The notes under the pieces were generated by a model, which saw only the letters and a program-made list of their open reading frames with translations, was not told where the DNA came from and did not search any database. From positions 1-24,140 of the IMG/VR virus record IMGVR_UViG_3300031452_000018: a stretch of 24,140 nt of DNA, one strand, 5' to 3'. Shown one piece after another: positions 304 to 24,140 of this stretch. The stretch comes from a virus (lineage: Duplodnaviria > Caudoviricetes). Both the position numbers and the translations under genes were made by a program. Each line of letters starts with the position of its first letter. Position 1 is the stretch's first letter.

Positions 304-534
304 TTATTCATCATATGTTCTTTTTGCAACCAATATAGGGCCAAAACTGCTGCACTTTTCTTCGCATACAACAACACTGCCTGGTATAAATTCCCATTTC
401 TCATCCTCAAGGTCATAATCATCCGTCGGCATGACCATAAAGACATTGTTCCCCAAATTTACTCCTTGCGTTGGTCTCGAAACGTCGGTTCCTTCCTCTA
501 ACAATGGAATGTATATAGTCTGGCTAGTGGTCAA
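304..534 (-). CDS. Putative immunity protein for cassette P6 (76 aa)
   Basis: Small, acidic, AT-rich ORF. Its TTG start overlaps the apparent ancestral end (TAG 524-526) of the upstream toxin tip. Confidence 0.7.
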   Translation of the reverse strand: MTTSQTIYIPLLEEGTDVSRPTQGVNLGNNVFMVMPTDDYDLEDEKWEFIPGSVVVCEEKCSSFGPILVAKRTYDE

Positions 535-1450
535 AATAATCCCCTCCGAGTTAAATGACCTCGCCTGTCTCAGTGTCTATGACGATTGACCTACCATTTT
601 GTGGGTGCACGTATCTAGTCGCGCCGTTTTCTGGGTTGATGCGGTTTGAAGCGGGAACGCTCCTTCCGCCCGCGATGGCTTCCTCGACCTCCTCAGGCGT
701 CCACCCTCGTTTGTTCATCTGATTGAGCCATTTTTGCGTTGATTTGGGTCCGGCGAACCCCCGTGTCACCCTCGCGAGATCCTGCATGATCAGGTTCGGT
801 GCTTCAGCCTCAGCCGGCGTCGGCGGGTGAGTCGGATGCGGATCGCTTGCTCCAGTTGGCGGCTTCGTCTCGTCGCTTCCCTCCGGCCACCACCGCCGCG
901 CGAGGCGCTCCGCGGCGCTGGCCAGCGCACCGAGCATGCGGGCAAGGGCGCGGGCACGCGGCCTGAAGGCCATGGGCGTGACCGGTGTTCCATCCGGCGC
1001 GTGAGGACCCTCAGCGGCTTCAACTCGCGAGATCGTGGGCGATGAAGAAAGCGCTGATCCCTCGCCGCCCCCGCTCGTCCATCGACCATCCGGATCGCGG
1101 GGCTGAGTCAGGTAGGCGGCGGAGCCGGACGGCACGGCGAACGCGTCGGCGGCTTCGCAGGCATCCGACGCGGTTACTCCCGCCGCACCAACTGTCGTCG
1201 CCGAAAAGATCCCCTCCGCACCCGGGTAGGTCCCGTCTTCGATCAGCTGCGCCTCGACGAGCCGTGCCGTGACATCCGCGGGCCACAGCCCGAGCCCCGC
1301 ATAGACCTGCGCGGCCTGCGCCTTGCTGAGCGCGACCGTCGCCTTCGTGGTGGCATCGAGCTGCCACAGCGGCCGGAATTCGAAGGTGAGCCGCGCCGGG
1401 TCGATGCCCTCCGAGCGCAGGATCAGCCGGTCGAGCTAGGGCCGGAGGTT
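524..1450 (-). pseudogene. Cassette P6: 5'-truncated portal fragment fused to a colicin E5-like RNase tip (orphan CT cassette)
   Basis: Frame open from 1435 to 551: LDRLILRSEGIDPARLTFEFRPLWQLDATTKA...YLTQPRDPDGRWT...KWLNQMNKRGWTPEEVEEAI...ATRYVHPQNGRSIVIDTETGEVI. No portal N-terminus. The TAA at 551-553 is followed in frame by LGGDYFDH and TAG. Confidence 0.8.
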
Positions 1451-1478
1451 GGCATATCCTAATGTTCGTCGTTTTCTG

Positions 1479-1805
1479 CTAATCTAATCGCGCATAGGAC
1501 CGGGCGTTATTCCATGCAATCGCAACTTGATTAGTTATGTCGTAATGGGGAGCCATATCCACCAGGTTTTGCATTATGACGTCGACTGTGTAGGTCGTCC
1601 TGCTACCGAACACGATCGACTCGATGAACGGAATTATCATGTGATTAATTTGATTAATTCCAATCAGTCGGTGGATCATATTGTCTGCTGGTGTCGTATA
1701 AATATCTCTTACCCCCATTGTGAGATGGTACAGGAATGAACTCAAAACTCTCGCCTGCGTAGAAGGTGGGGAGCCTGCAAGCTCCAACATGCTGATTTCA
1801 CTCAC
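1479..1805 (-). CDS. Putative immunity protein for P5 (108 aa)
   Basis: AT-rich ORF starting 14 nt after the P5 stop, with GGAG upstream of the GTG start. Confidence 0.75.
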   Translation of the reverse strand: MSEISMLELAGSPPSTQARVLSSFLYHLTMGVRDIYTTPADNMIHRLIGINQINHMIIPFIESIVFGSRTTYTVDVIMQNLVDMAPHYDITNQVAIAWNNARSYARLD

Positions 1806-1819
1806 GACAGCAGCTCCAT

Positions 1820-3592
1820 CTATTCAAGGATCGGCTTGTCCGGCGGTAGTCGGCCGCCGCCGTCGCCGGGCTCATCAAAGGGGTTGATGTGCAGAGTTCT
1901 CGGCAAGCCGTCGACCGGATAACCGCGATCTTGGAGAACTTTCAACCGAGTGTTCCCGTTCATGACCCGCCCATCCGGGGTTACCCTTAAAGGCTCTTCC
2001 GGATTCTCCCTGAAGCTCTTCACGATGTCATCAGTTGTTTGCTTCTGCCAGAATTCCAGAGAGCGTTCTGCCTGAGAATCGGTTTCGTAGGTGCTGTCCG
2101 GGTGAATTCGCCGAAGCGGAGGATCGGCACCTGCAACTCGGAGGACATGCGGCGCACTTGGAGCCGAACAGGAGCCGCCGCCTCCACCGCCTATCACTGT
2201 CCATCGCCCATCCGGATCGCGGGGCTGAGTCAGGTAGCCAGCGGAATCGGACGGCACGGGTAAGGCGTCGGTGGTGCTGCTGGAATCTTTTACCCCGTTC
2301 GCCTCCGCGCCTCCCACACCCGCAAAGGTCGCCGCGGCATTCGGATAGACCCCGTCCTCGATCAGTTGCGTCCCGACGAGCCGGGCCGTGACATCCGCGG
2401 GCCACAGCTCGAGCCCCGCATAGATCTGCGTGGCTTGCGCCTTGCTGAGCGCCACCGTCGCCTTCGTGGTGGCATCGAGCTGCCACAGCGGCCGGAATTC
2501 GAAGGTGAGCGCCGCCGGGTCGATCCCCTCGGAGCGCAGGATCAGCCGGTCGAGCCGCTCCAGCTGCGGGCGGAGGTCGATCTCCTGGCGAGCCGAGATC
2601 ATGTCGTAGTAGTTGCGCGTGTCGCTGTCGCCAGTCGCCGACAGGCCCGCGGGCGACTGGCCGAGCAGCCGCGTCACCGGGATGTCGGCCGCACCCGCCG
2701 CCACCTGCAGGAAGGTGCGGACCATCTCGGGCAGGCCGGCAAAGTCGACCCGTTGCCTGGCCCAGGTCTCGCCGTCGCCGAGCAAGAGCAGGTTGTTGAT
2801 CGATTTCATGGCGGCCGCGTAGGCGAACCGCGCCGACAGCTGCGCCGTGGTGTCGGCGGAGGACAGGTGCTCGGAGAGGTTCGGCACCGTGACGACGTCG
2901 ACCTTGGCCTCGTGCATCAGGCTCGTGGCGCCGGCCGTGGTCAGCGCCACGGCATGGACCGCGTCGTAGAGCGCCAGCAGCACGCTGTCCGACCAGACCG
3001 AGGCCCCCAGGCTCGGGTCGGGCCAGGCGTTGCCGAGGAAGCGCACCACGCGCGAGGGGTGCAGCCGCAAGGCGCCGCGCTCGGGCGCCACGACGTCATA
3101 AGCTACGGCCTCGCCGAACCAGGGGCTCAGGGGATCGCGGTCGATTGCCGGGGCCGCGAGCTGCCAACGGCTGACCGCGTGCAGGAATTTCAGACCGCCG
3201 CGCGGCAGCGTCTCGGGGTCGAGCGGGCGGGCCAGCGCGGCCGGGTCGGTCTCGCCCGTGCCGATGATGATGGCGCCGCCGCCGTAGAGCCGCCCCAGCA
3301 CCAGCGCCCGCTGCAGCGCCTTGCGCAGCCCGAGCCGGCGCTCGGCGGCCTCGACCCGGGCCACGTCCTCCCGGTGCCCCGACCACGCGCGCCATTCGCG
3401 CACCATGTCGTAGGGCACGATGTCGACGACCTTGCGGGCCAGCCAGTCGCCCCGGTACATGGCCTCGATCTGCCCCCGGTCGAGGTCGAACAGCACGAAG
3501 CTGTCGTAAGCCGCCTTGTCCTTGCCGGCGCCCAGCGAGGCCGCGAGGTTCGACAGGCTGTCGCGCACGCCCGCCGTGAAGGATGGAGGCAT
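1820..3592 (-). CDS. P5: DUF1073/HI1409-type portal fused to a ParB/Srx-like toxin tip (590 aa)
   Basis: Start MPPSFTAGVRDSL at 3592, matching P2 and P4. Portal motifs YRGDWLARKVVD, RLYGGG, LHPSRVVRF, IPVTRLLGQSPAGLSATGDSDTRNYYD. Then QPRDPDGRWT (2198-2227) and a tip with PLRVTPDGRVMNGNTRLKVL, resembling the ParB/Srx (D/N)G(H/N)xR motif. Confidence 0.85.
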   Translation of the reverse strand: MPPSFTAGVRDSLSNLAASLGAGKDKAAYDSFVLFDLDRGQIEAMYRGDWLARKVVDIVPYDMVREWRAWSGHREDVARVEAAERRLGLRKALQRALVLGRLYGGGAIIIGTGETDPAALARPLDPETLPRGGLKFLHAVSRWQLAAPAIDRDPLSPWFGEAVAYDVVAPERGALRLHPSRVVRFLGNAWPDPSLGASVWSDSVLLALYDAVHAVALTTAGATSLMHEAKVDVVTVPNLSEHLSSADTTAQLSARFAYAAAMKSINNLLLLGDGETWARQRVDFAGLPEMVRTFLQVAAGAADIPVTRLLGQSPAGLSATGDSDTRNYYDMISARQEIDLRPQLERLDRLILRSEGIDPAALTFEFRPLWQLDATTKATVALSKAQATQIYAGLELWPADVTARLVGTQLIEDGVYPNAAATFAGVGGAEANGVKDSSSTTDALPVPSDSAGYLTQPRDPDGRWTVIGGGGGGSCSAPSAPHVLRVAGADPPLRRIHPDSTYETDSQAERSLEFWQKQTTDDIVKSFRENPEEPLRVTPDGRVMNGNTRLKVLQDRGYPVDGLPRTLHINPFDEPGDGGGRLPPDKPILE

Positions 3593-3790: not shown

Positions 3791-4039
3791 ATGACCGCCT
3801 ACAGCGTCGCCGAAGCCAAGAACACGCTTCCCAAGCTGATCGATCGGGCGCTCGAGGGCGAAGAGGTGGTGATCACGCGCCACGGCAAAGCGGTCGCCGA
3901 ACTGAGATCGTTGCCGTCGCGCCCGGCCGCACCGACCGCGACCTACGCTTGGCTGCGCACCCGCCGACAAGCCCGCCCTCGCGTCGGCTTGACCTCCGTC
4001 GAGGCCCTGGAGCGCCTGTACGAGGCCGAAGCGTCGTGA
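3791..4039 (+). CDS. Type II TA antitoxin, Phd/YefM family (82 aa)
   Basis: YSVAEAKNTLPKLIDRALEGEEVVITRHGKAVAEL is a typical Phd/YefM N-terminus. GGAG RBS upstream. Confidence 0.92.
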   Translation: MTAYSVAEAKNTLPKLIDRALEGEEVVITRHGKAVAELRSLPSRPAAPTATYAWLRTRRQARPRVGLTSVEALERLYEAEAS

Positions 4040-4153
4040 GCGCCTGTCGCGATTGCTCGGCGTCTCGACGTCACCCTCGCTACATTGGACCGGCGCTTGG
4101 CGATTCCCGCCCGGGAACTCGGCGTCGTGGTCGACGAACTCGACGCCGTTTAG
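4036..4153 (+). pseudogene. Internally deleted VapC/PIN toxin
   Basis: A GTG overlaps the antitoxin stop (GTGA). After a few codons and a frame change the sequence reads AIARRLDVTLATLDRRLAIPARELGV..., a PIN-domain C-terminus. Only 118 nt remain. Confidence 0.7.
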
Positions 4154-4584
4154 CCCCGCCCCTCCGGCCAGCCGAACCCCGCCGCGAGGTGGCGCCGCCA
4201 CCAGCCGTCGAACGCCACCTCGCGCACGCGGTCGCGCGATTGCGCGTGGATCATGCGTCCATCGTCGGACAGGATGGCGGCGTGCTTGACCGGGCACCCC
4301 GGCCGCAGCCGGAACAACGCCACGTCGCCCGGCCCCACCTCCTCCAGCGCAACCGGAAGCAGGTGCCGCCGCGCCGCGTCGAGCATGTGCTCGACGGCAC
4401 CGACCTCGCCCCAGTCGGGCGTGTAGGGCGGCGGCTCCTCGGGCTCGGCGCCGTAGAGGTCGCGCCACACGCCGCGGACGAGGCCGAGGCAATCGCAACC
4501 GGCGCCGCGGAGCGCCGCCTGATGGTGATAGGGCGTGCCGATATAGCGGCGCGCCGCCGCCACGATGACTTGACGGTCGATCAT
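4150..4584 (-). CDS. NlpC/P60 phage cell-wall peptidase (RcGTA g14-like, TIGR02219-type), 144 aa
   Basis: ARRYIGTPYHHQA..GCDCLGLVRGVWR..YTPDW..KHAAIL..MIHA. ATG at 4584 overlaps the upstream stop. Confidence 0.92.
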   Translation of the reverse strand: MIDRQVIVAAARRYIGTPYHHQAALRGAGCDCLGLVRGVWRDLYGAEPEEPPPYTPDWGEVGAVEHMLDAARRHLLPVALEEVGPGDVALFRLRPGCPVKHAAILSDDGRMIHAQSRDRVREVAFDGWWRRHLAAGFGWPEGRG

Positions 4585-5474
4585 GAGAACAGCGAGCCGC
4601 CGGTCGCCGCGAGCGCGCCCTGCACGCCGTAGCGCGTCACCGCGTCGGCGCCCGGGATGTGGGGGAAACCGCGGAAATTGGCGACGTTGTTGAACTTCGA
4701 CCTGCACACGGCCAGCGTCTTGCGGCAGCCCGCCACCACGGTGCCTGCGTCGCCCACGGCGGCCGGGAAGGGCGGCGGCAGCCAGAGTTCGAGCTGGTCG
4801 ATGCCGCTGGTGCGGCGGTGCGATTTCACTTCGAAGAGGATCGCGGCATTGGCGCCGCTCGCGAAGACGATCGTACCATCCGTGAACCAGTCGGACGCAT
4901 AGCCCGAAAGGCCGGCCGCCACGAGCACGCGGCCCGTGCCGCCGGAGGCCAACGTAACGGCGGCGCGAAACTGCGGCTGTGTCAGGTCGACCTTGCAGCG
5001 CGCATCGCCGAGCCTGGCCTCGCATTGGCGCGAATAGGTGGACCCGATCTTCTGGTTCAGGCGGTGGGCGAGCGCGCGCAGCTCGGCCGAGAAGGCCAGG
5101 CCCTCGCGCTTCACCTCGCCCAAGTTGCCGCTGGAGATCAGCACGAAGGTCGCGGGGTCGCTCCAGTCGACCCAGTAGAGGTCGACCGCCGCGTCGTCGT
5201 AGCGCCCCGCCAGGATGTCGGCTTCCGACAGGCCAGCACTCGATAGCGCCCCCGCGGCCGCCATGTTGTCGACCGCGAGGCCGAGCGACTGCTCGATGCG
5301 CGACGCCGTGAAACCCGAGCCGGCCTGGAAGGTGGTGCCGGCAGCCGTGACGTCGCGGTCGTGCTCGGTGAAACCCATGACCGTGCCGTCGTGGCGGGTC
5401 ACCCGCCAGCAATAGCACAACGTCGTGACGCCGCCCGACAGGTGCGCCTGCAGGGCGGGAGGAAGCGCTTTCAT
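4581..5474 (-). CDS. DUF2163 baseplate hub protein (RcGTA g13-like, TIGR02218-type), 297 aa
   Basis: TTLCYCWRVTRHDGTVMGFTEHDRD..CEARLGDARCKVDL..AGCRKTLAVCRSKFNNVANFRGFPHIPG. ATG at 5474. Confidence 0.92.
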   Translation of the reverse strand: MKALPPALQAHLSGGVTTLCYCWRVTRHDGTVMGFTEHDRDVTAAGTTFQAGSGFTASRIEQSLGLAVDNMAAAGALSSAGLSEADILAGRYDDAAVDLYWVDWSDPATFVLISSGNLGEVKREGLAFSAELRALAHRLNQKIGSTYSRQCEARLGDARCKVDLTQPQFRAAVTLASGGTGRVLVAAGLSGYASDWFTDGTIVFASGANAAILFEVKSHRRTSGIDQLELWLPPPFPAAVGDAGTVVAGCRKTLAVCRSKFNNVANFRGFPHIPGADAVTRYGVQGALAATGGSLFS

Positions 5475-6115
5475 GGCCGGATCTCGACGATCGGGATGTT
5501 GGGGATCTGCCCGGCCTCGAACCAGGCGAGGTCGGCCTCGAGGTAGTCGGTGTCGAAGCGCACCGGCACGTCGAACTCGAAGCCGGCCGTGATGGCGGCG
5601 CCGGCCGGCGGCACGTGGCCCGGCAGGAAGGTGACGAGGCCGCTGGTGGCGTCGGCCGTCCAGGCGAGCGCCGGGGCGACCGCTGCCCCACTCACTCCGA
5701 TCCGCACGGTGCCGGGCACGGGTTTGGCGATGGTCCGCGTATAGGGGGTCGGCAGGCCGGCGCCGTAGAGCTTCACGAGCTGGAAGGTCGCGGTGCGGCC
5801 GTCGCCCGTGCCGATCGCGACGTCGAGGGCGGTCGGGGTCTGGGGCGACGGGCAGGAGCGGTAGTCGAAACGGTCCTTCCAGCGGAAGCCGTAGAGCCGG
5901 CCGCGCTGGGCCTCGAAGAAGTCGCGCACGGCTTCGAGCTGGGCGAAGCTCTTCACGCCGTAGCCAGCCTGGTACTTGCGGCGGCCATCGGCCCAGACCG
6001 CGTTGCGCTCCTCGGCGCCCGAGCGCAGCGTGACGACGTCGGTGCGACGCTCCGGGCCGCCCCGGGCGCCGAGCGCCACGTCGGTCGGGAACCGCACCTC
6101 GTTGAAGCCCGCCAT
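5471..6115 (-). CDS. DUF2460 distal tail protein (RcGTA g12-like, TIGR02217-type), 214 aa
   Basis: FNEVRFP..GGPERRTDVV..SGAEERNAVW..FFEAQRGRLYGFRWKD..TAGFEFDVPVRFD. ATG at 6115. Confidence 0.92.
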   Translation of the reverse strand: MAGFNEVRFPTDVALGARGGPERRTDVVTLRSGAEERNAVWADGRRKYQAGYGVKSFAQLEAVRDFFEAQRGRLYGFRWKDRFDYRSCPSPQTPTALDVAIGTGDGRTATFQLVKLYGAGLPTPYTRTIAKPVPGTVRIGVSGAAVAPALAWTADATSGLVTFLPGHVPPAGAAITAGFEFDVPVRFDTDYLEADLAWFEAGQIPNIPIVEIRP

Positions 6116-7146
6116 CAGCCGTTCCTCCCACCGCGCCCGACCGCGCGGGCCAGCAGCGCCGCCATCTGGCTCTCGCTCCGCGCGAAGGAGGGCGCGTCGG
6201 GTGAGGTCACGTTGAAGTTGATCACCTGCGTGGCCCGGGGGCCGGCCCCCGGGCTCGGCATCTTGGCCCAGGGCGTCACGGCGGCCGGACCCGCCACGAC
6301 CTCGGCTCCCCGCTCGCCCACGATGCCCCACTGCCCGGCGCCGATCGTGCCGCCGTCGGCAAAAAGACCGGCGAAGCCGGATGCCCCGCCGCCGCCCGAC
6401 ACCGCTTTGGCCATGGCGCCGAAGATGCCCCCGGTCGCGCCGTCCTTGCCTTGCGTGCCGAACAGCGCCGCGAAGGGTCCGGCCCCCGTGAGCGTGGCCT
6501 GAAGGCCCTGGCGGGCCGTGCCGCGCAGCAGACTTGCCGCGACCTCGTTCAGGCGCGCGCCGTCGAGGATCAGGCTCTCGATGCCCCGCGCCGCCTGGGC
6601 CGCGCCGAAGCCGAAGGCCTGGTTCGTGGCGGCTTGGCTCGCCTTGAACTTGGCCTGGGCGGCCGTGGCGGCGTCGATCTGCCGGACGAGGTCGGCCACG
6701 CCCGCCCGCTCGGCCGCCGTGGCCTCCGTGCCGAGCTTGGCCTGCTCGGCCTCGATCTTCATGCGCTCGACGATGGCCGCGTGGGCGTCGCCGACCGTGT
6801 GCAGCAGAGCCAGCTGTTCGGACAGGCGCGTCATCACCTTGGCCGGATCGTCGTCGCGGTCGCCCGAGGTGTCGGGGATGGTCCGGCTCGCCAGCACCTG
6901 GGCCGTGGTGAGACCGGCCTGAACCTTGGCCACCGGCGAGGCGGCGGCCATTGCGGCGGCCTGCCGGGCCTGGAGCCCGGCCGCGGTGTCGAACGTGTGG
7001 CTCAGGCCGGCCGAGGTCGCGTCGGCCCAGGCGCCGGCCCGGCCCGCCAGCCGGTCGAGGGTGTGTCCGGCCGTGTCGGCGGCCCGCGTGAAGCCGGAGA
7101 AATCGGCCTCGAAGCCGAAGCTGAGGGCGCCCGCCTGTTCCGCCAT
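6115..7146 (-). CDS. Short tail tape measure protein (343 aa)
   Basis: Ala-rich helical ORF between the chaperones and DUF2460. C-terminus FADGG..IVGERGAEV..FNVTSPDAPSFARSESQMAALLARAVGRGGRN is GTA tape-measure-like. Confidence 0.85.
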   Translation of the reverse strand: MAEQAGALSFGFEADFSGFTRAADTAGHTLDRLAGRAGAWADATSAGLSHTFDTAAGLQARQAAAMAAASPVAKVQAGLTTAQVLASRTIPDTSGDRDDDPAKVMTRLSEQLALLHTVGDAHAAIVERMKIEAEQAKLGTEATAAERAGVADLVRQIDAATAAQAKFKASQAATNQAFGFGAAQAARGIESLILDGARLNEVAASLLRGTARQGLQATLTGAGPFAALFGTQGKDGATGGIFGAMAKAVSGGGGASGFAGLFADGGTIGAGQWGIVGERGAEVVAGPAAVTPWAKMPSPGAGPRATQVINFNVTSPDAPSFARSESQMAALLARAVGRGGRNG

Positions 7147-7149
7147 GCT

Positions 7150-7392
7150 CTACCCTCGCCTCTGCCAATCGCGGAACTCGGCGTCGAGCGCCTGGATCTG
7201 GTCGCGCGTCATCGCGCCCTCGTCGGGGTCGAGGCCCAGCACGAGACGGGAATAGCCCGCCCAGGCATCGGCGAAGCCGCGCCAGGAACAGCGCCAGAAT
7301 TCCTCCTCGGACCAGGTCAGGGCGCCGAGCGCGAAGCCTCGCCAGCGGCGCCAGTCGGCGAGCCGTCGCGGTCCGGCGCCATCGCGAAAGGG
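7150..7392 (-). CDS. Tail assembly chaperone C-terminal extension (gpGT-like), probably produced by -1 frameshift
   Basis: DWRRWRGFALGALTWSEEEFWRCSW...MTRDQIQALDAEFRD resembles alphaproteobacterial tail chaperones (LxWxxxxFW). No convincing independent start; lies in the -1 frame of the upstream chaperone. Confidence 0.75.
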   Translation of the reverse strand, partial: PFRDGAGPRRLADWRRWRGFALGALTWSEEEFWRCSWRGFADAWAGYSRLVLGLDPDEGAMTRDQIQALDAEFRDWQRRG

Positions 7393-7763
7393 CCGGCGCC
7401 CGGCGCCGCCTCCTCGGCGGCCGCGCCGGCCGGATTGCGCACGACCTCGAAGCCGAGCGCCGCCATCAGGGCCAACACGAAGGCTTCCGCCTCGACCGCG
7501 GCGGTGCGGGCCGCGAGCGCCTCGGCATCGGCACGGCCGATCGCCCCGAGTGCGCCGGCGATCAGCGCCATGCCGTCGGCGGCGCGGCGCCCGAACACGG
7601 CCTTGTTGATGGCCTCGACGATCGAAACGCCGCCGCATCGCTCCTCGATCAGCGCCACCGTGCCAAGGGTCGTGTCGAAGGCGACCCGTTGGCCCGCCAG
7701 CACGGCCGTGAACTCGCCGCGGAGGGTATTGGGGGCCGCGATCCTCGCGGCAGCGGCCGTCAT
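7317..7763 (-). CDS. Tail assembly chaperone (GTA gp10-like), 148 aa
   Basis: NTLRGEF..LAGQR..TLGTVALIEE motif. Positioned between tail tube and tape measure. Confidence 0.8.
   Translation of the reverse strand: MTAAAARIAAPNTLRGEFTAVLAGQRVAFDTTLGTVALIEERCGGVSIVEAINKAVFGRRAADGMALIAGALGAIGRADAEALAARTAAVEAEAFVLALMAALGFEVVRNPAGAAAEEAAPGAGPFAMAPDRDGSPTGAAGEASRSAP
7386..7392 (-). promoter_or_regulatory. Putative -1 ribosomal frameshift heptamer C CCT TTC
   Basis: X XXY YYZ pattern correctly phased in the chaperone ORF (GGC CCT TTC). A -1 slip gives CCC TTT CGC GAT (PFRD), the frame of the downstream chaperone domain. Confidence 0.7.
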
Positions 7764-7808
7764 GCCGGCGCTCGCTCTTCGAAGGGAGCGCTCGTCATGC
7801 CGGCGCTC
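7758..7808. repeat. 16-nt direct repeat CGTCATGCCGGCGCTC (7758-7773 and 7793-7808)
   Basis: Exact repeat read directly. Duplicates the stop/start junction between tail tube and chaperone. Confidence 0.85.
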
Positions 7809-8217
7809 CGGCGGTCCAGGCCGGGACGCCGGAGGATTCCAGCGTCAGCGACGACGAGATCTCCTTGTCGAACGGCGCCGATTCGTCGAGCTGCGTGACC
7901 ACGAACCCGCCCTGGTAGTAACCGGCACCCGGGTAGACGATCTGGCACTGGAGCAGGGCGCCTCCTTCGAAGGCGCTCCTCACGGCCCCATAGGCCGCGT
8001 CGTTCAGCCAGACGAAGTCGCTGGCCGAGAAGCTCATGGACTGCGCGGCCGCGCCGGGCAACAGTTCCTGCCAGCGGCCGACCGAGTCGGCCGAGGTGAC
8101 CTCGACCTTGCCGACGGCGCGCTTCACCTGCTTGGTGCGCAGGCCGCCGGCGGTGACGAAGGTCGAACCGGATGTGTTGACGCGCAGCAGCAGGCCGCGG
8201 CCGGGGGACGCCGACAT
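7795..8217 (-). CDS. Phage major tail tube protein (TP901-1/GTA g9-like), 140 aa
   Basis: GRGLLLRV..FVTAGGLRTK..VEVTSADSVGRWQELL..YQGGFVVTQLD..SLTLESSG. Confidence 0.9.
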   Translation of the reverse strand: MSASPGRGLLLRVNTSGSTFVTAGGLRTKQVKRAVGKVEVTSADSVGRWQELLPGAAAQSMSFSASDFVWLNDAAYGAVRSAFEGGALLQCQIVYPGAGYYQGGFVVTQLDESAPFDKEISSSLTLESSGVPAWTAGAPA

Positions 8218-8241
8218 GGGGCACCTCGTCGTTTCGGGGGA

Positions 8242-9134: not shown

Positions 9135-9138
9135 GGCG

Positions 9139-9489: not shown

Positions 9490-9536
9490 GGTGGTTTCTC
9501 CGGATTCGCGAGGCCGTCATGGCGCGCCGCGTGCGA

Positions 9537-16230: not shown

Positions 16231-16662
16231 GGTATGTCGGCGGCACCGGCCGCCACCTGCAGGAAGGTCCTGACCATCTCGGGCAGGCTGGCGAAATCGA
16301 TCTGCTGCCGAGCCCAGCTCTCGCCGTCGCCGAGCAGCAGGAGGTTGTTGATCGACTTGATCGCGGCCGCATAGGCGAACCGCGCCGAGAGCTGCGCCGT
16401 GGTGTCGGCTGACGATAGGTGCTCGGGAGAGGTTCGGCACCGTGACGACGTCGACATCGAGCACGTTCGACGTGCTCGTCAGCTTACAGTGGAGCAGTTC
16501 GGCACCAGCCGAACTGCTCTGGCTTCGTGCACCAGGCTCGTGGCACCGGCCGTCGTCAGCGCCACGGCGTGCACGGCGTCAGAGACCGCCAGCAGCACGG
16601 AGTCCGACCACACTGAGATCCCGACCGTCGGGTCGGGCCAGGCATTGCCGAGGAAGCGCAGC
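16231..16662 (-). pseudogene. Internal portal remnant with insertion and frameshift
   Basis: RFLGNAWPDPTVGISVWSDSVLLAVSDAVHAVALTTAGATSLVHEA-[insert]-VDVVTVPNLS / EHLSSADTTAQLSARF..QVAAGAADIP. Confidence 0.85.
16456..16519. repeat. Double-hairpin insertion element, copy 2
   Basis: CGAGCACGT-TCG-ACGTGCTCG (16458-16478) and GAGCAGTTCGGC-ACCA-GCCGAACTGCTC (16492-16519), both perfect stems. Confidence 0.85.
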
Positions 16663-16670
16663 TCGCGCCT

Positions 16671-17003
16671 TTAGACCGGCTCCGACCGCTTGAGGCCGAA
16701 CCAGCAAATAGGTTCTGCCGAGGTCGGCGTCTTGCCCATGGCGATCCACTCACCTTCGATGCGTTTCAGCAGATCACCCGGCTCGCCCGGCCAGAACGAC
16801 ATCGTTGTCGCGTAATCGAAGTCGCCCGGGTACACGCCGAGCGCTATCAGGCGTTCGATGACGTCCAGCGTGCAGCGGCGGATCTCCTCCTGACCCCGCA
16901 GACAGAGGTGCTCCCGCAGGGACTCGGCGATGAAAGGTACTTCGAGGAAGTCAATATCGGCCTCGGCGCGAAACTCCGATATCATACGTTCTATGTCAGA
17001 CAT
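16671..17003 (-). CDS. Orphan putative immunity protein, paralog of 17281-17631 (110 aa)
   Basis: Shares FIAESLRE..QEEIRRCTLDVI..GVYPGD..FWPGEP..LLKRIE.EWIAMG.TPT..PICWFGLKRS.PV. TAATG overlap with a toxin-tip remnant. Confidence 0.8.
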   Translation of the reverse strand: MSDIERMISEFRAEADIDFLEVPFIAESLREHLCLRGQEEIRRCTLDVIERLIALGVYPGDFDYATTMSFWPGEPGDLLKRIEGEWIAMGKTPTSAEPICWFGLKRSEPV

Positions 17004-17272
17004 TATGGACCCCAGTAGTGCAGCTTCCGAAAGATCACGCCGGGGATGTTGATATCAATAGCCTGCACCGTGGTGTCGGCCGAGATCAGGTGCTCGCTGA
17101 GGTTCGGTACCCGTGACGACGTCGACCTTGGCCTTGTGCGTCAGGCTCATCGCACCCGCGGTGGTCGATGCAACCGCGTGCACGGCGTCGTAGAGGGCCA
17201 GCAGCACGATGTCGGACCAGACCGAGGCCCCGTCGGTCGGGTCGGGCGATTCGTTGCCGAGGAAGCGCAGGC
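17003..17272 (-). pseudogene. Cassette P3b: portal remnant joined to the last 19 codons of a P3-like toxin
   Basis: RFLGNESPDPTDGASVWSDIVLLALYDAVHAV.. then SADTTVQ|AIDINIPGVIFRKLHYWGP*, versus P3 end PAIDVNVPGVVRRKLHY*. Confidence 0.8.
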
Positions 17273-17280: not shown

Positions 17281-17631
17281 TCAGACCGGCCCAGATCGCT
17301 TGAGGCCGAACCAGCAAATAGGGTGCTCCAGCGTCGGCGTGGCGCCCATGGCGATCCACTCGGCTTCGATCCGCTTCAGCAGCGCCTCCGGTTCGCCCGG
17401 CCAGAACAGCATCGTCGTCGCATGATCGTAGTCGCCGGGGTACACGCCCCGCGCCATCAGGCGCCCGATCACATCGAGCGTGCAGCGGCGGATCTCCTCT
17501 TGGCTCCGCAGATCGAGATCCTCTCGCAGGGACTCGGCAATGAATGACACATCGAAGAAGTCGCGATCGATCTCGGCGCGGAGTTCTGAGGTAATTCTTG
17601 CGATTTCGGCTTCAAACATCATAAACCTCAA
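17281..17631 (-). CDS. Putative immunity protein for cassette P3 (113-116 aa)
   Basis: TTG start overlaps the P3 tip stop (alternative ATG at 17622). Intact and has a tandem paralog. Confidence 0.8.
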   Translation of the reverse strand: MRFMMFEAEIARITSELRAEIDRDFFDVSFIAESLREDLDLRSQEEIRRCTLDVIGRLMARGVYPGDYDHATTMLFWPGEPEALLKRIEAEWIAMGATPTLEHPICWFGLKRSGPV

Positions 17632-18910
17632 TAATGGAGCTTCCGCCGTACCACACCCGGAACGTTGACATCGATGGCCGGCGATCCGGGCGTCGACGTG
17701 ACTGGCCGCAGTGTGACCGTGCCAGCTTCGCCGGGCAGGCGGACCATCGATCCATCATCGAACGGAGCCGCCGTACCGCCCGCGCTCAGGTAATCGTAAT
17801 CTCGCTGCGCCGCGGAGAGACCACCGAACATCAGACGCGTCCTGGTCGAACTACCGGGCCTGCCGATCGGCTGCCCGTTGGGCCTGAGGAAGTCGCAGGT
17901 CCTCGCGATGGCGGCCTCCTTCGCCGCGCCCTCGATCCGAGCGATATCGGCCTCGGTCGCGACGTAGCCCGGCGGCTCCAGCCTCAGCAATGCACGGTTT
18001 TGTGGATCGATCTCCTTCAACGAGCGCCACGCTTGAATGTACCACGCGGCCCTGATCGGTTCCATGGCGTCGGGAGGAACTTCGGCAAGCGGTCGATTTT
18101 CTCCTTCGCCCTCCAGTCCAGCGGCATGTGCTGTCCCGATCGGGCTCAGTATGCCGAGGATGCCGCTCGGCTCGCTTGACGCCGTGCGCTTCGGGGCGAT
18201 GCCGGCCCCAGCAGTCCATCGTCCGTCCGGGTCGCGCCGCTGGTTCGGGTCGAAGTCGAGGGCGGAGCGCGCGGTCCCAGCTCGCACGATCTAGATCGCC
18301 TCCGCACCCGGATAGGTCCTGTCCTCGATCAGCTTCGCCTCGACGAGCCGCGCCGTGGTCTCGGCCGGCCAAAGCCCGAGCCCGGCGTAGATTTGGGTGG
18401 CCTACGCCTTGGCGAGTGCCACACCGGCCTGGCTCGCCGCATCCATCTGCCACAGCGGCCGGAACGCGAAGGTGAGCGCGGCCGGGTCGATGCCCTCCGA
18501 GCGCAGGGTCAGCCGGTCGAGCCGCTCCAGTTGCGGCCGCAGGTCGATCTCCTGGCGGGCCGAGTTCATGTCGTAGTAGTTGCGCGTGTCGCTGTCGCCC
18601 GTGGCCGAAAGACCCGCCGGCGACTGGCCGAGCAGCCGCGTCAGCGGGATGTCGGCCGCTCCTGCCGCCACCTGCAGGAAGTGCGGATCATCTAGGCAGG
18701 CCGGCGAGTCGATCCGCTGCCGCGCCAAGCTCTCGCCATCGCCGAGCAGGAGCAGGTTGTCGATCGATTTCATCGCCGACGCCTAGGCGAAGCGCACCGA
18801 GAGCTGCGCCGTGATGTCGGCCGAACTCAGGTGTTCGCTGAGATTCGGCACCGTAACGACGTCGACCTTGGCCTCGTGCATGAGCGAGGCCGCGCCCACC
18901 GTGGTCAGCG
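17628..18910 (-). pseudogene. Cassette P3: decayed 5'-truncated portal half plus open toxin tip (17628-18287)
   Basis: The portal part has TAG stops (~18783, 18402, ~18291) and small deletions near 18690-18710. The tip is open: LDFDPNQRRDPDGRWT..GGLSAAQRDYDYL..VRLPGEAGTVTLRPVTSTPGSPAIDVNVPGVVRRKLHY. Confidence 0.82.
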
Positions 18911-18949
18911 CGAATACTGTCCTTTCTGACCCGAATCCTCAGCCTGTTT

Positions 18950-19462
18950 CTACGCCGATGAATGCTCCGGGCTAAACACCAGCCCTGTCCCTTGCGGTTC
19001 TGTAAGCCAAAATTTCAGGGGTACACCATCCTCATCGAAATCATTATAACTCTCAAGCAGAAGCTTGAGCCCGAGTCGCAGGCAAGCAGCGACAATGTCG
19101 GGATCGATGTTCGGCATGGGAGTCACACCGTCCGCTAGTACTGTGATCCAGAGCACGGCCTCAATTTGTCCACTCAGGAGGTACACCACCAAGTCCTGCC
19201 CCAATTCGATCAGCCCGATGATACGGGTCAGCCAGGCCGAAACGTCGTTGTCGTCCTTACCCCTGAAGCTTGCCGTGGAGGCATAATGTCGATCCGCTAC
19301 TCGACCCGCGAGACGTCCCTCGGTCGCCATGGGCTCACCCACAATGTGGAGAAGCTCGACGGTGACATCGGCCTGATCCAAAAGCGGCTTCAAAAAAACC
19401 CACTCACTCCAAAGGCGCAAAGTCATATCGATCGGCTTGTCGCGTGGTGCATGAACAATCAT
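18950..19462 (-). CDS. Putative immunity protein for P2 (170 aa)
   Basis: AT-richer ORF starting 4 nt after the P2 stop, with an AGGAG RBS inside the toxin end. Confidence 0.75.
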   Translation of the reverse strand: MIVHAPRDKPIDMTLRLWSEWVFLKPLLDQADVTVELLHIVGEPMATEGRLAGRVADRHYASTASFRGKDDNDVSAWLTRIIGLIELGQDLVVYLLSGQIEAVLWITVLADGVTPMPNIDPDIVAACLRLGLKLLLESYNDFDEDGVPLKFWLTEPQGTGLVFSPEHSSA

Positions 19463-19466: not shown

Positions 19467-21008
19467 TTACTCTCCTAAATTTCCAATTATCTCTCCGTTG
19501 TAGATGATATCCCCGGTTGTCGTATCGAATAAACAAGCGTCAGCACCAGTTAGTCTCCTTAGCCGCTTAGCCAAATGAAGAGCGTCAGAGGCAGCGTTCG
19601 GGTCTAATTTCAGCACTCGGCAAGCATACCGGAAATTGCTCGTCGTAGCCACTGGCTGAAACAGGCTTTCATCACGTTCTCCAGTAATCGGGTCGGCTCC
19701 GTGGTGGAAAACGCGGGTGATGGGAGACACTCCTCCGCCACTCTCCGCCGTCCATTGCCCATCCGGATTGCGCGGTTGATCGGGAAAGTAGTCCGCGACC
19801 GGGCCGCTCGTGTCTCCGCCATTTGGGCCGCCTGGGTCGGTCGCACCCGCCCCTGTTTCGGCGAAGACCCCCTCCGCGCCCGGGTAGGTCCCGTCCTCGA
19901 CCAGCTGCGCCTCGACGAGCCGCGCCGTGGTCTCGGCCGGCCACAGCCCGAGCCCGGCGTAGATCTGGGTGGCTTGCGCCTTGGCGAGCGCCACACTGGC
20001 CTGGCTCGCGGCGTCCATCTGCCAGAGCGGACGGAACGCGAAGGTGAGCGCCGCTGGTTCGATCCCCTCCGAGCGCAGGATCAGCCGGTCGAGGCGCTCC
20101 AGTTGCGGCCGCAGGTCCACCTCCTGGCGGGCCGAGATCATGTCGTAGTAGTTGCGCGTGTCGCTGTCGCCCGTCGCCGAAAGACCCGCCGGCGACTGGC
20201 CGAGCAGCCGCGTCACCGGGATGTCGGCCGCGCCCGCCGCCACCTGGAGGAAGGTGCGCATCATCTCGGGCAGGCCGGCGAAGTCGATTTTTTGGCGCGC
20301 CCAGGTCTCGCCGTCGCCGAGCAAGAGCAGGTTGTTGATCGATTTCATGGCCGACGCATAGGCGAAGCGCGCGCTGAACTGCGCCGTGGTGTCGGCCGAC
20401 GACAGGTGCTCGGAGAGGTTCGGCACCGTGACGACGTCGACCTTGGCCTCATGCATCAGGCTCGTGGCGCCGGCCATGGTCAGCGCCACGGCGTGGATGG
20501 CGTCGTAGAGCGCCAAGAGCACGCTGTCGGACCAGACCGAGGCCCCCAGGCTCGGGTCGGGCCAGGCGTTGCCGAGGAAGCGCACCACGCGCGAGGGATG
20601 CAGCCGCAAGGCGCCGCGCGGCAGCGCATCGGGGTCGAGCGGGCGGGCCAGCGCGGCCGGATCGGTCTCGCCCGTGCCGATGATGACGGCGCCGCCACCG
20701 TAAAGCCGGCCCAGCACCAGCGCGCGCTGCACGGCGCGGCGCAGCCCGAGGCGACGTTCGGCCGCCTCCATGCGGGCCACGTCGGCGCGCTCGCCCGACC
20801 AGGCGCGCCACTCGCGCACAGTGTCGTAGGGCACGATGTCGACGACCTTGCGGGCCAGCCAGTCGCCCCGGTACATGGCCTCGATCTGGCCCCGGTCGAG
20901 GTCGAACAGCACGAAGCTGTCGTAAGCCGCCTTGTCCTTGCCGGCCCCGAGCGAGGCCGCGAGGTTCGACAGGCTGTCGCGCACGCCCGCCGTGAAGGTT
21001 GGAGGCAT
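19467..21008 (-). CDS. P2: portal with in-frame 41-aa deletion fused to a small predicted RNase-type tip (513 aa)
   Basis: Directly follows the terminase. QPRNPDGQWT at 19749-19778. Tip ..DALHLAKRLRRLTGADACLFDTTTGDIIYNGEIIGNLGE has HxxK and DxxTGD motifs (Ntox33-like, tentative). Confidence 0.82.
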   Translation of the reverse strand: MPPTFTAGVRDSLSNLAASLGAGKDKAAYDSFVLFDLDRGQIEAMYRGDWLARKVVDIVPYDTVREWRAWSGERADVARMEAAERRLGLRRAVQRALVLGRLYGGGAVIIGTGETDPAALARPLDPDALPRGALRLHPSRVVRFLGNAWPDPSLGASVWSDSVLLALYDAIHAVALTMAGATSLMHEAKVDVVTVPNLSEHLSSADTTAQFSARFAYASAMKSINNLLLLGDGETWARQKIDFAGLPEMMRTFLQVAAGAADIPVTRLLGQSPAGLSATGDSDTRNYYDMISARQEVDLRPQLERLDRLILRSEGIEPAALTFAFRPLWQMDAASQASVALAKAQATQIYAGLGLWPAETTARLVEAQLVEDGTYPGAEGVFAETGAGATDPGGPNGGDTSGPVADYFPDQPRNPDGQWTAESGGGVSPITRVFHHGADPITGERDESLFQPVATTSNFRYACRVLKLDPNAASDALHLAKRLRRLTGADACLFDTTTGDIIYNGEIIGNLGE

Positions 21009-21050: not shown

Positions 21051-22274
21051 TCAAACCACGTCGAGCAGGCGGTAGTCGGCCCGTCGCACGGCTTCCAGCG
21101 CGTAGCGGAGTGCGTCGATGACGTGGTCGTGGCGGTCCTCGAGCACCGGCAGGATGTCGCCGGTGAGCGGGTCGGTGCGGTAGGAATAGAGCGTCAGTTC
21201 GTCGATGGCGTGCCGGCACTCCGGGTGGACCACGATGTCGTGGTCCTGCAGGAACGCCACGCCTTCCTCGACCGAGTTCTTGCCCTTCTTGGCGGGCCTG
21301 ATACGGAATTCCTCCCGGCGCAGGTGGTCGATCAGTTCGGGCCGGGCGCTGTCGCCCGTGATGGGCCAGGCCCTCGCCCCATGCGTGCCCTCCACGCCGC
21401 GGAACAGCGCCCCGATCTCGCCGATCGGGCAGCCGACCCGGTAGGCCTCGCGGTCGATGTAGATCAGCCCCTGGAACAGGAAGCAGCGCACCAGCACGGT
21501 GGGGTCGGCCGCGAAACCCCAATCGGCGCCGTAATAGGGCCGAGCGCTGTCCGGCACCTCCAGGCTGTCGATCCTCCAGCGGCGGAACACGCGCGTCTCC
21601 GCGTGGAGCTGATAGGCGCCTTCCCACACGTGGGCGTATTTCTCGAGATCCCGCGACCTGTCCCAAAGCCGCTCGGCGTCGAGCACGGCCGGGAACCACG
21701 GGTTGTCGGCGTAGCTCACTCGGGCCAGGATGGCATCGGGCCGCGGCGGCCCGCGGCGGAACATCGCGTCGACCGGGTCGGAGGGATGGCGCGGATTCCA
21801 GGTGAACCACAGTTCCGAACCGGCTTTGCGGATCGTCGGCACCAGGATGTCGAGCGAGCGCTGCGACACGGTGGCAGCCTCCTCGACCCAGGCAATGTCG
21901 ACGCCCTCCATGGACTTGATCGACTCCGGGTTCGACCGTAGGCCGGCGAACAGGAACAGCGAACCGTTGCGCCCGCGGATGGCCTCCGCGGTCGAGCGGT
22001 AGCGGCGCGTCAGGCCCAGTGCCGCGATGCGGTCGTCGAGGAGGCGCTTCGACGAGTCACGGATCGAGCGCTGGATTTCGCGCGCCGCCAGCACCCGCAG
22101 CGGCCGCTCGGCCGCCATCAGCACCAGGGCGGTGGCGATCGAATGTGACTTGCCGGAGCCGCGGCCGCCGTAGAAAGCCTTGTAGCGCGCTCGTTGGAAC
22201 AGGGACCGGAAAGCGTCCGGCAGCGCGATCTCGAGATCTTTCGGCGGGCGCGACGAACCGGACCGTGATGCCAT
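21051..22274 (-). CDS. terL: Terminase large subunit, PBSX family (407 aa)
   Basis: Walker A YGGRGSGKS, Walker B IAWVEEA, TWNP, YADNPW, nuclease GADWGF and DHVIDALRY. ATG at 22274 preferred because the longer start lies in a portal remnant. Confidence 0.93.
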   Translation of the reverse strand: MASRSGSSRPPKDLEIALPDAFRSLFQRARYKAFYGGRGSGKSHSIATALVLMAAERPLRVLAAREIQRSIRDSSKRLLDDRIAALGLTRRYRSTAEAIRGRNGSLFLFAGLRSNPESIKSMEGVDIAWVEEAATVSQRSLDILVPTIRKAGSELWFTWNPRHPSDPVDAMFRRGPPRPDAILARVSYADNPWFPAVLDAERLWDRSRDLEKYAHVWEGAYQLHAETRVFRRWRIDSLEVPDSARPYYGADWGFAADPTVLVRCFLFQGLIYIDREAYRVGCPIGEIGALFRGVEGTHGARAWPITGDSARPELIDHLRREEFRIRPAKKGKNSVEEGVAFLQDHDIVVHPECRHAIDELTLYSYRTDPLTGDILPVLEDRHDHVIDALRYALEAVRRADYRLLDVV

Positions 22275-22330
22275 GGGCGCCGTCGTCCTTTGTCGGCCGC
22301 GCGTTTCAACCTCACCGGAGCTTCGGGCGA

Positions 22331-22490
22331 TCAGGGCGTCTTGGCTCCCAGGCTCGAGTCGGGCCACGCGTTGCCGATGAAGCGCACCACGCGCGAGGGA
22401 TGCAGCCGCAAGGTGCCGCGGCCGGATGCCACCACGTCGTAGCTTACCGCTTCGCCGAACCAGGGGTCAGCAGGTCGCGGTCGATCGCGG
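22331..22490 (-). pseudogene. Short internal portal remnant
   Basis: PWFGEAVSYDVVASGRGTLRLHPSRVVRFIGNAWPDSSLGA matches the portal copies. Confidence 0.85.
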
Positions 22491-22603
22491 CGCGACTTCG
22501 CTTCCAGCACTGGAGCTGTGATGAACGATGATGCAACTGACTTAGTGGAAATCGATGTTTTTGAATTATCGATCATGGCATGTTATATATTTACTGTTGA
22601 GGT

Positions 22604-23134
22604 TCATCTGTCATACTGCTCGATGTCTATGGTGCCGTCAGAATTATAGGACATATTCCATCCATCTTCCGAGAATAAAATCCACTGGCTACTCTCCTGA
22701 GAACCAGGTTTAAATTGTACGTATAAAAAACCAGAAATATCAAATTTCATGTTCAAACTGTATATGTCTTGTGAAACATCGGCTGTTATCAGCTTCTGAC
22801 CACTAAGTCGACTGAGACAGAGATCGACTTCTGACTGATCGGGATCGAAACGGCTACATTTTAGATCGAATGCCTCTACACTCCACAGACCGTCATCGAT
22901 GAACAGGCTCCACTGTCCCGTGGGGACGACGACACGTCGGCTCAGAGCTGGGTTAACTGGCTTATCGACCGAAGTCGAACCGTTTATCGGACCCTGGACT
23001 ACGAGATGAGGCTTGCCAAATTCCATCCGCAAAATTCGACTCTCTCCACAGCGGACGAACCACACGTACTCTCCAATGAGAGGTGCAAATAGATTACGCG
23101 CTTCCTCAGCGATAACCTGCCTCTGTTTAGTCAT
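22604..23134 (-). CDS. Putative immunity protein for P1 (176 aa)
   Basis: Markedly AT-rich. ATGA overlap with the P1 stop and GAGGTGA RBS within the toxin tip. Confidence 0.78.
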   Translation of the reverse strand: MTKQRQVIAEEARNLFAPLIGEYVWFVRCGESRILRMEFGKPHLVVQGPINGSTSVDKPVNPALSRRVVVPTGQWSLFIDDGLWSVEAFDLKCSRFDPDQSEVDLCLSRLSGQKLITADVSQDIYSLNMKFDISGFLYVQFKPGSQESSQWILFSEDGWNMSYNSDGTIDIEQYDR

Positions 23135-24140
23135 GGATACTCACCTCGTTTGACACTGAGCGCAATCGATAGCAGCTCTTGATAGTCTGTTATGCCTTGG
23201 CCGGTGATCGCGTCGTGGAAAATTCTTTGTTGTCTTCTATCCAGACCAGCGGCGTTCGCGGCAGCCTTGGCGATCTTTAGCCCCTGCGGATCGTCCGCCG
23301 AAGCCGCCGGAGTAACTGGAGTTCCGTCGGGTGCATGAGGACCAGCATACGGCTTTTCCCCGCCCGCGCCACCCCGGGCAGTCCATCGCCCCTGGGGATC
23401 GCGGGGTTGGGCCGGAAAGAAATCCAGGACCCCACCGCTCGGAGCCCCGCCATTCGCGTCCTCTGGGTCGGCCGTGTCTGCTTGCCCCGCTTCCGCGAAG
23501 ATCGCTTGCGCGTTTGGGTAGACTCCCTCCTCGATCAGCTGCGACTCGACGAGCCGCGCCGTGGTCTCGGCCGGCCACAGCCCGAGCCCGACGTAGATCT
23601 GGGTGGCTTGCGCCTTGGCGAGCGCCACATCGGCCTTGGCGGCGGCGTCGAGTTGCCACAACGGCCGGAACGCGAAGCTGAGCGCCGCGGGGTCGATGCC
23701 CTCGGAGCGCAGGATCAGCCGGTCGAGCCGCTCCAGTTGCGGCCGCAGGTCGATCTCCTGGCGGGCCGACACCATGTCGTAGTAGTTGCGCGTGTCGCTG
23801 TCGCCCGTCGCCGAAAGCCCGGCCGGCGACTGGCCAAGCAGCCGCGTCACGGGAATGTCGGCGGCACCCGCCGCCACCTGCAGGAAGGTCCTGACCATCT
23901 CGGGCAGGCCGGCGAAGTCGATCCGCTGCCTGGCCCAGCTCTCGCCGTCGCCGAGCAAGAGCAGGTTGTTGATCGATTTCATGGCGGACGCATAGGCGAA
24001 CCGTGCCGAGAGCTGCGCCGTGGTGTCGGCCGAAGAGAGGTGCTCGGAGAGGTTCGGCACCGTGACGACGTCGACCTTGGCCTCATGCATCAGGCTCGTG
24101 GCGCCGGCCATGGTCAGCGCCACGGCGTGGATGGCGTCGT
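23131..24140 (-). CDS. P1: portal (5' end outside window) fused to a short helical toxin-like tip
   Basis: Portal C-half, QPRDPQGRWT at 23380-23409, then GPHAPDGTPVTP and GLDRRQQRIFHDAITGQGITDYQELLSIA. Confidence 0.82.
   Translation of the reverse strand, partial: DAIHAVALTMAGATSLMHEAKVDVVTVPNLSEHLSSADTTAQLSARFAYASAMKSINNLLLLGDGESWARQRIDFAGLPEMVRTFLQVAAGAADIPVTRLLGQSPAGLSATGDSDTRNYYDMVSARQEIDLRPQLERLDRLILRSEGIDPAALSFAFRPLWQLDAAAKADVALAKAQATQIYVGLGLWPAETTARLVESQLIEEGVYPNAQAIFAEAGQADTADPEDANGGAPSGGVLDFFPAQPRDPQGRWTARGGAGGEKPYAGPHAPDGTPVTPAASADDPQGLKIAKAAANAAGLDRRQQRIFHDAITGQGITDYQELLSIALSVKRGEYP

Follow-up and report, generated by a model that had tools for sequence, protein, structure and literature searches.

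Exchangeable toxin-like ends on the portal genes of a phage-like cluster from lichen- and rock-associated bacteria

Why should a phage-like locus hold six portal-derived sequences, each closed by a different end? The question is raised by a stretch of 24,140 nucleotides (nt) filed as a virus of the Caudoviricetes (IMG/VR record IMGVR_UViG_3300031452_000018, positions 1 to 24,140; the whole stretch is hereafter called the window). A first-pass annotation made from the letters had proposed a polymorphic toxin system built on the phage portal protein, and this proposal has held in part. Very probably the genes are a polymorphic toxin-immunity system in which the portal supplies the constant N-terminal portion, because the variable ends (hereafter tips) are homologous to toxin ends of other carriers, each tip is paired with its own downstream partner in relatives, the tips fall into about 30 clusters, and orphan cassettes are present.

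Portal-derived genes, tips and partners

The genes concerned are all on the minus strand. Six frames derived from the portal run up to the motif R[DN]PxG[RQ]W (at 23403, 19772, 18236, 11366, 2221 and 1099) and continue for 90-202 residues of mutually unrelated sequence. The motif had been given earlier as QPRDPDGRWT; it is present in all six frames, but in the looser form written here. Compared with P4, the portal parts are 74-86% identical (61% in P6), and P1-P5, those scanned, match PF06381. The sole likeness among the six tips is a 14-residue linker stretch in tips 1 and 6. The GC content at third codon positions is 0.45-0.76 in the tips and 0.41-0.78 in the partners, against 0.90-0.92 in the portal, capsid and hub genes, and in all six cases a different small open reading frame (ORF) follows the tip stop at a distance of -4 to 40 nt. 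The members of the array are:

23131..24140, minus strand: P1, portal (5' part beyond the contig) with tip1, a Rhs-type C-terminal domain (PF06381, E 5.6e-54)
22604..23134, minus strand: I1, predicted immunity protein of tip1, 176 amino acids (aa), overlapping the P1 stop by 4 nt; behind tip1 in L016; no Pfam family match
22237..22474, minus strand: portal scrap (22343-22474) and 3' scrap of a small-terminase candidate (22237-22296), by tblastn
19467..21008, minus strand: P2, portal minus 41 aa in frame, with tip2 (comparison with P0018)
18950..19462, minus strand: I2, predicted immunity protein of tip2 (homology to a PAAR partner gene; 3/3 cognate pairs)
17628..18911, minus strand: P3, orphan cassette, 5'-truncated and stop-broken portal with intact tip3 (portal comparison)
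17281..17622, minus strand: I3, predicted immunity protein of tip3 (behind 14/14 distinct tip3 copies; dN/dS about 0.19)
16671..17270, minus strand: portal scrap, last tip3 codons and a second I3 copy (16671-17003), an orphan immunity gene (sequence comparison)
16227..16667, minus strand: portal scrap (sequence comparison)
10773..12725, minus strand: P4, whole portal of 650 aa with tip4 (PF06381, E 4e-100; TIGR01555)
10367..10732, minus strand: I4, predicted immunity protein of tip4, SCO4402-like (NF047838, E 1.4e-8, below cut-off; 6/6 cognate pairs)
1820..3592, minus strand: P5, whole portal of 590 aa with tip5 (PF06381, E about 1e-100; Pam3 portal match)
1479..1805, minus strand: I5, predicted immunity protein of tip5 (behind tip5 in L019)
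551..1435, minus strand: P6, orphan cassette, last ~120 portal residues with a predicted colicin E5-like tRNase tip and an early stop (Colicin_E5, E 1.1e-6)
304..534, minus strand: I6, predicted immunity protein of tip6 (3/3 cognate pairs)

Whole portals in the window are P4 and P5 only. The 5' part of P1 is lost at the contig end and its whole form of 544 aa is the database protein P0008, while the whole form of P2, 554 aa long, is P0018. The portal part of P3 starts only at about residue 216 and is interrupted by three in-frame stops ahead of the tip; P6 begins at about residue 347, and the stop of its tip (551-553) comes earlier than in the homologue P0037. Because P1 and P2 are incomplete and P3 and P6 are 5'-truncated and stop-broken, the array consists of two to four possible carriers with orphan cassettes, not of six working genes: at most four of the six (P1, P2, P4 and P5) could make a portal fusion, and P3 and P6 are dead cassettes. 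Thus, the first-pass annotation was right about similar portals that diverge into unrelated, AT-richer tips with adjacent small ORFs, but its cocktail of six toxins was overstated, and its inventory missed four further portal scraps (22343-22474, 16917-17270, 16227-16667 and 9928-10209, by tblastn), the second I3 copy, which is 74% identical, and a tip3 scrap at 124-257.

By sequence, five of the six tips are homologous to toxin ends (colicin E5, Rhs, PAAR, HINT and a cdi-type cassette). Tip6 matches Colicin_E5 above the curated cut-off and the PDB entry 2DFX with E 0.0014, and tip1 shares 79% identity with the end of the RHS-repeat protein P0230. For tip2, the similar sequence is the C-terminus of a PAAR protein (55% identity) encoded in a type VI secretion cluster of Agrobacterium, where the gene right behind the PAAR gene is homologous to I2 (E 5e-14) and the next gene is not. 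Tip5 shares 56% identity with the C-terminus of a polymorphic-toxin HINT protein of Streptomyces, the partner of which gave no significant BLASTP match with I5. Tip4 resembles, at 36% identity, a C-terminal domain from a VENN/cdi-type cassette cluster of Cronobacter, and its matches in Atlas belong to mixed Ntox families; the Cronobacter partner gene is NF047838, the family that I4 matches below the cut-off, with no significant direct BLASTP match between the two partners. Tips 4 and 5 had no sequence match in PDB, and plasmid searches with tips 1, 3 and 6 and with I6 found nothing.

The same pattern is repeated in relatives. The motif occurs in 66 of 90 portal homologues (five of the 90 belong to the lineage of the window itself), and the 62 tips longer than 60 aa form 31 clusters, a number to be taken as an upper bound because some tips are frameshifted. 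A family scan covering 49/90 homologues added barnase with barstar, a SUKH partner, Ntox37, Ntox28, and Imm21 behind tips that in our own reading look HNH-like (no Pfam match). A homologue of the tip's own partner lies directly downstream in 28/28 distinct non-self tip copies, with 0 cross-pairs, when 12 self-like rows, 18 duplicates and 7 rows without room downstream are left out; the counts for single pairs (tips 2, 3, 4 and 6) are given in the list above. The survey of relatives for variable C-termini followed by small ORFs, proposed together with the toxin reading, came out in its favour.

Four partner copies have no detected tip and would be orphan immunity genes. Tips 3-5 as well as I1, I3 and I4 have a ratio of nonsynonymous to synonymous divergence (dN/dS) of 0.15-0.20, although from few pairs and with partly saturated dS. 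The tip-partner unit moves between relatives: a tip4-type end lies behind NlpC in L071 and behind the capsid gene in the window. Cassettes with a truncated N-part (P3, P6 and the second I3) are likewise found in relatives. Thus the genomic hallmarks of polymorphic toxin systems, namely a variable tip, shared toxin domains, a downstream cognate gene and orphan cassettes, are all found here.

The gene cluster, its promoter and its hosts

The portal genes stand among phage head and tail genes:

21051..22230, minus strand: terminase large subunit (Terminase_3, E 4.7e-34; Terminase_3C)
16170..16212, minus strand: predicted LexA-repressed promoter, GTTC-N7-GTTC (16198-16212), then TTGACA (motif)
14588..15712, minus strand: DUF2213 head maturation protease/scaffold (PF09979; phrog_530 head maturation protease, E 1.5e-80)
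14133-14588, minus strand: cement (decoration) protein (PF22758, Pfam)
13115-14056, minus strand: major capsid protein (PF09950, Pfam)
4150..9920, minus strand: neck and short non-contractile tail genes, a tail of the type of RcGTA, the gene transfer agent (GTA) of Rhodobacter capsulatus (Pfam)
3791..4039, plus strand: lone Phd/YefM antitoxin gene (PF02604)

The neck and tail genes are DUF4054, head completion, gp10, gp17, tube, chaperone, short tape measure, DUF2460, hub and NlpC/P60. The tape measure matches RcGTA_tape with E 2e-11, below cut-off, and a GTA_TIM gene comes next in relatives. The order of terminase, portal, protease, cement, capsid, neck and RcGTA-type tail is conserved. Three genomes have FUSC-family efflux genes instead of toxin cassettes in the interval from portal to protease (L009:11482-14655, L020:13658-16859 and L175:9688-11766).

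Close relatives of the locus are found in genomes of Lichenihabitans, Lichenibacterium and Lichenifustis and in alphaproteobacterial metagenome-assembled genomes, the hosts being lichen- and rock-associated bacteria. We judged the distribution at the level of the genus Lichenihabitans (31 genomes), since a search over the family was too broad; L132, which has no annotation, was left out of the analysis. The portal is in 27/31 of these genomes and a full-length capsid gene occurs once each in 17/31, at 81-93% identity; any capsid match is found in 7/121 family genomes only. The capsid has diverged much like a host gene (dS 0.58 vs 0.53 for recA) with a dN/dS of 0.17, and capsid and recA distances are correlated (Mantel r 0.41, p 0.005; 16 genomes in each case). 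The flanks are host housekeeping genes, and a site behind sppA-ihfB-lapA-OCD is common to L001, L011, L029, L054 and L072; other species differ. No tyrosine integrase was found within 120 kb in 5/5 genomes (serine integrases were not searched), and no replication genes were seen in the flanks. MuF (PF04233) was found in 0/5 genomes and not in the window, with the control positive in 5/14. A capsid of the PF05065 type was found in 1/5 genomes, on another contig or locus, the cluster's own capsid being PF09950. One relative has an endolysin-like gene downstream of the cluster. Taken together, the cluster looks like a host-inherited, GTA-like and domesticated element and not like an ordinary prophage, a character that the first-pass annotation had missed along with the LexA-type box.

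This box, GTTC-N7-GTTC directly followed by TTGAC, lies at 16212-16198. Since one box is seen in the window and 0.6 would be expected, it is not above chance there and only its conservation counts. In the loci of relatives the module keeps both half-sites unchanged while its spacer varies, and it precedes terminase, portal, cassette or protease genes by about 0.2-1.4 kb. The exact box with TTGAC occurs in 16/31 genomes (0 in the reversed control); in L003 and L020 the box is shifted to the -10 side. GTTC-N7-GTTC is assigned to alphaproteobacterial LexA in PMC8565304. As a control, recA promoters have the related GAAC-N7-G(T/A)AC in 27/27. It is likely, judging from these motifs, that the cluster is under SOS control. 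Promoter-portal-cassette units lie at several chromosomal places in G002 and G124, and G002 has five copies of the boxed promoter.

A possible delivery route and its alternatives

If the portal carries toxins, the question is where the tips would go. P4 and P5 have the full-length portal domain (PF06381, E about 1e-100), and P5 matches the portal of cyanophage Pam3 by sequence (E 2e-83) and in a fold search, where the Pam3 portal 8HDS ranked first, with a low-confidence model (mean pLDDT 53). In the homologous portal of E217, whose structure covers only residues 97-528 of 765, the C-terminal barrel reaches into the interior of the head (PMC10329688); in Pa193 there is no density for residues 529-765 (PMC11456595). 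The portal of T4 is functional with a C-terminal green fluorescent protein on up to about half of its subunits (PMC9958956). By analogy with these portals it is plausible that the tip would lie inside the head.

We consider it the more probable explanation, though only with modest confidence, that the cluster makes a phage-like particle, domesticated and likely SOS-induced, with a portal that would bring exchangeable toxins into non-immune neighbours. LexA cleavage would de-repress the operon in some cells, and portal subunits would assemble into a 12-mer with the tips inside the head, where a single ring could combine the products of several intact genes. We infer this loading of the tips into particles, and from the conserved motif D-[FY]-x-P-x-Q-P-R-D we infer that the DUF2213 head protease might cut the linker nearby and free the tips. 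After lysis, the RcGTA-type tail would inject them, probably together with DNA, and kin carrying the partner gene would survive. Recombination through the shared 3' half of the portal would swap tips and leave orphan tip-partner cassettes behind, as in cdi and rhs loci. A fuller version is more tentative: the genus may have tamed a phage head and a GTA-type tail into an SOS-triggered toxin particle with mixed portal rings, protease release and tip reshuffling, which possibly also serves as a kin-restricted GTA. If this version is true, there would be a capsid-borne route for polymorphic toxins distinct from MuF, from tailocins, and from Photorhabdus virulence cassettes and other extracellular contractile injection systems (PVC/eCIS).

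The linkers between motif and tip have features of their own. An internal stretch, L-x-x-L-[NS]-P-[IV]-G-x-A-x-A-x-E, occurs 40-75 residues past the motif in 16/60 tips and precedes unrelated toxin ends (at ~18130-18165 in the window, in the tip3 linker, and in P0013, P0021, P0044 and others). It is signal-peptide-like, presumably resembling a signal peptidase site, and could be a second processing site. Another linker motif, GPHAPDGTP, is found in tips 1 and 6 (23330-23310 and 1000-980) and in seven other homologues, among them P0015, P0019, P0029, P0064 and P0078, and by these sequences the linkers look modular. A short Cys-rich tail (C..EW..A...C ... ARGLVS.RCGGN) without a Pfam match closes several portals (P0034, P0036, P0075 and P0079; L002).

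Several observations weigh against the delivery model. In the loci of the genus, 14/24 portal starts that are 5'-complete are broken, some of them in isolate genomes (L004, L005), and 2/24 are intact but without a toxin tip; the rest are six intact starts with a long tip, one with the short Cys-rich tail and one running off its contig. Contigs of 4/4 sequencing runs lack 10 nt at 2193, by which the P5 tip would shift out of frame, while L054 and L056 agree with the window. The supposed cleavage site is read from the motif, with the Asp ahead of it in 40/62 close homologues. The capsid and recA trees are congruent only in part, and in some genomes with cassettes no capsid or no tail genes turned up. 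Tip3, the commonest tip of the genus, has no family or clear fold match, so the comparison of each tip with known families and structures bears out five tips and not this one. It gave no match in Pfam, NCBIfam or PHROGs, and a PDB profile search returned repeat-protein noise only. Its predicted model (alpha+beta, pLDDT 79) had no Foldseek match with E under 0.001, and in VIA-align the CdiA-CT complex 5T86 reached Z 5.4, level with unrelated folds. In Atlas it scored 0.93 with unnamed clusters and 0.83 with a MafB cluster, and a search among longer proteins met portal fusions only (7/7).

The broken starts and the P5 frameshift in four runs speak at the same time for another explanation, in which the pairs of toxin and partner are genuine but the particle itself is in decay, and the cassettes are addiction modules or an immunity bank with toxicity inside the carrier, for example SOS-linked self-killing. 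It would also fit the orphan immunity genes, the cassettes scattered over several sites in G002 and G124, which have a promoter copy of their own, and the negative result for DUF2460 in G002 and G003. However, the low dN/dS of the capsid and a gene order conserved over 16-17 species are at odds with decay, the whole-portal fusion is kept in six genomes although addiction would not need it, and some of the breaks may be assembly errors across repeats. We regard this explanation as unlikely.

Alternatively, the main role of the cluster could be that of a gene transfer agent, with a head not of the RcGTA type and with tips that restrict DNA transfer to kin or disarm defences of the recipient, as the Acb1 and ADP-ribosyltransferase (ART) tails of phage portals do. 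Such a role would suit the RcGTA-type tail with GTA_TIM, the terminase, the vertical inheritance and the flanks in which no replication genes were seen, and a whole portal without a toxin tip is kept in two genomes, of which G125 has a complete cluster. Moreover, distant PF06381 portals carry anti-defence tails. Against this, the tips here belong to nuclease families of a lethal type with dedicated immunity-type partners, and Ntox, colicin or barnase matches were found in 0/116 of the distant long portals. As the main explanation it seems rather less likely than decay, but it is compatible with toxin delivery and does not exclude it.

That the window is an ordinary temperate prophage, with the portal in the role that MuF has in MuF-toxin phages, is improbable. 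It was filed as a virus record, its head genes are of the Pam3/E217 type, and the flanking genes vary between some species, but no integrase or replication gene lies near the cluster (serine integrases aside), it is single-copy with host-like divergence, it occupies the one site in the five loci named above, and it has a LexA-type box of the host. Least probable is an array produced by an assembly that joined portal genes of several strains, as the 1.3-kb repeats at 83-89% identity and the different upstream neighbour of block 1-3614 in assembly L054 (99.97% identical, behind a promoter and a small-terminase candidate) might suggest, since other assemblies match 20468-24140 and 5467-13819 at 99.5-100%, contigs of other runs bridge the portal-tip-partner junctions (e.g., 22384-23557 and 18860-19937), and multi-cassette arrays are found in the isolate genomes L004, L005 and L007 and on megabase contigs (L012), which leaves only the order of the blocks in doubt.

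Relation to described systems

The closest known systems are the MuF polymorphic toxins, which have been described with immunity genes in temperate phages (Zhang 2012, PMC3482391; Jamet 2017, PMC5576092; Bxa/Apk2, PMC11699363). Like these, the genes studied here join a head-associated phage protein to a variable C-terminal toxin with an adjacent immunity gene in a packaging module, the toxin families overlap, and injection with DNA has been proposed for MuF. In contrast, the carrier here is the portal, an essential 12-mer (PF06381/TIGR01555), MuF itself is missing as described above, each locus has several carrier copies with orphan cassettes, and the cluster looks domesticated instead of being a temperate phage.

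Portal fusions to PBECR, 2H/Acb1, InPase, Nudix and ART have been reported (Iyer 2017, PMC5512222; Iyer 2022, PMC9503650). We compared the array with 138 new representatives of 50% clusters, 116 of which are at least 560 aa long; Acb1 and ART were tallied by hand. These portals have the same PF06381 domain, an identical fusion point and, in 23/116, the same linker motif. Most of the distant portals (P0092-P0228) carry C-terminal enzymes, mainly Acb1 (74/116) or ART (22), with zeta toxin (5), PBECR3 (2), Nudix and topoisomerase IB besides, and the portal-Acb1 fusion looks very common. They differ from the array in being single-copy (one portal match in 67/68 distant loci) and in their next gene, which is MuF (6/7 tested) or a protease, whereas here interbacterial toxin families, cognate partners and tip swaps between close relatives are found.

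With the CdiA, Rhs and MafB loci the array shares the conserved N-part, the junction motif, the variable tip, the cognate partner and the 5'-truncated orphan modules, and tips 1, 2, 4 and 5 are shared with such carriers; unlike them, it has no secretion system and its conserved part is a virion protein. The likeness to RcGTA lies in the tail set (tube, chaperone, short tape measure, DUF2460, hub, NlpC/P60 and GTA_TIM), the vertical inheritance and the flanks in which no replication genes were seen. In contrast, the head is of PF06381, DUF2213 and PF09950 with a cement protein and not of the PF05065 capsid type, and toxin cassettes and a LexA-type box are present. By gene content, it is thus neither a MuF toxin system nor a canonical RcGTA.

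In the open-licence literature we found no description of portal-borne toxin-immunity cassettes or of this cluster; figure 5 and the supplements of PMC5512222 were outside this scope and could list such fusions. The first-pass annotation had known of no portal-toxin array, and for toxin-immunity cassettes this stands, but because portal fusions to injected effectors are already in print (PMC5512222, PMC9503650) the novelty is narrower than it implied. The new element is that three things come together: a portal as the carrier, predicted immunity genes matched to their tips along with orphan cassettes, and a particle that is host-inherited and probably under SOS control.

For MuF, the proposal that capsids deliver polymorphic toxins goes back to 2012, and the biological role of MuF toxins was still called unknown in 2024 (PMC11699363). 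With a toxin fused to an obligatory virion protein, culturable, non-pathogenic isolates (Lichenibacterium and Lichenifustis, among them Lichenifustis flavocetrariae, L007/L015, whose cluster is intact) and a predicted SOS switch, head-borne toxin delivery becomes directly testable in this system. If it is true, the portal would join the list of polymorphic toxin carriers and a GTA-like cluster would gain a function besides gene transfer. The roughly 30 tip clusters are also a source of uncharacterised, putatively antibacterial toxin-immunity pairs.

Two minor observations concern the surroundings of PF06381 portals. The portals of another group lack both a tail and MuF and are followed by the protease gene (L081-L086, L105 and L119-L127, some on megabase contigs), and this group may be a second domesticated cluster. 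In the window itself, no partner toxin was seen beside the Phd/YefM gene at 3791-4039; its neighbour at 3614-3740 is a 3' remnant of the large terminase gene, and upstream sequence seems to travel along with the portal duplications.

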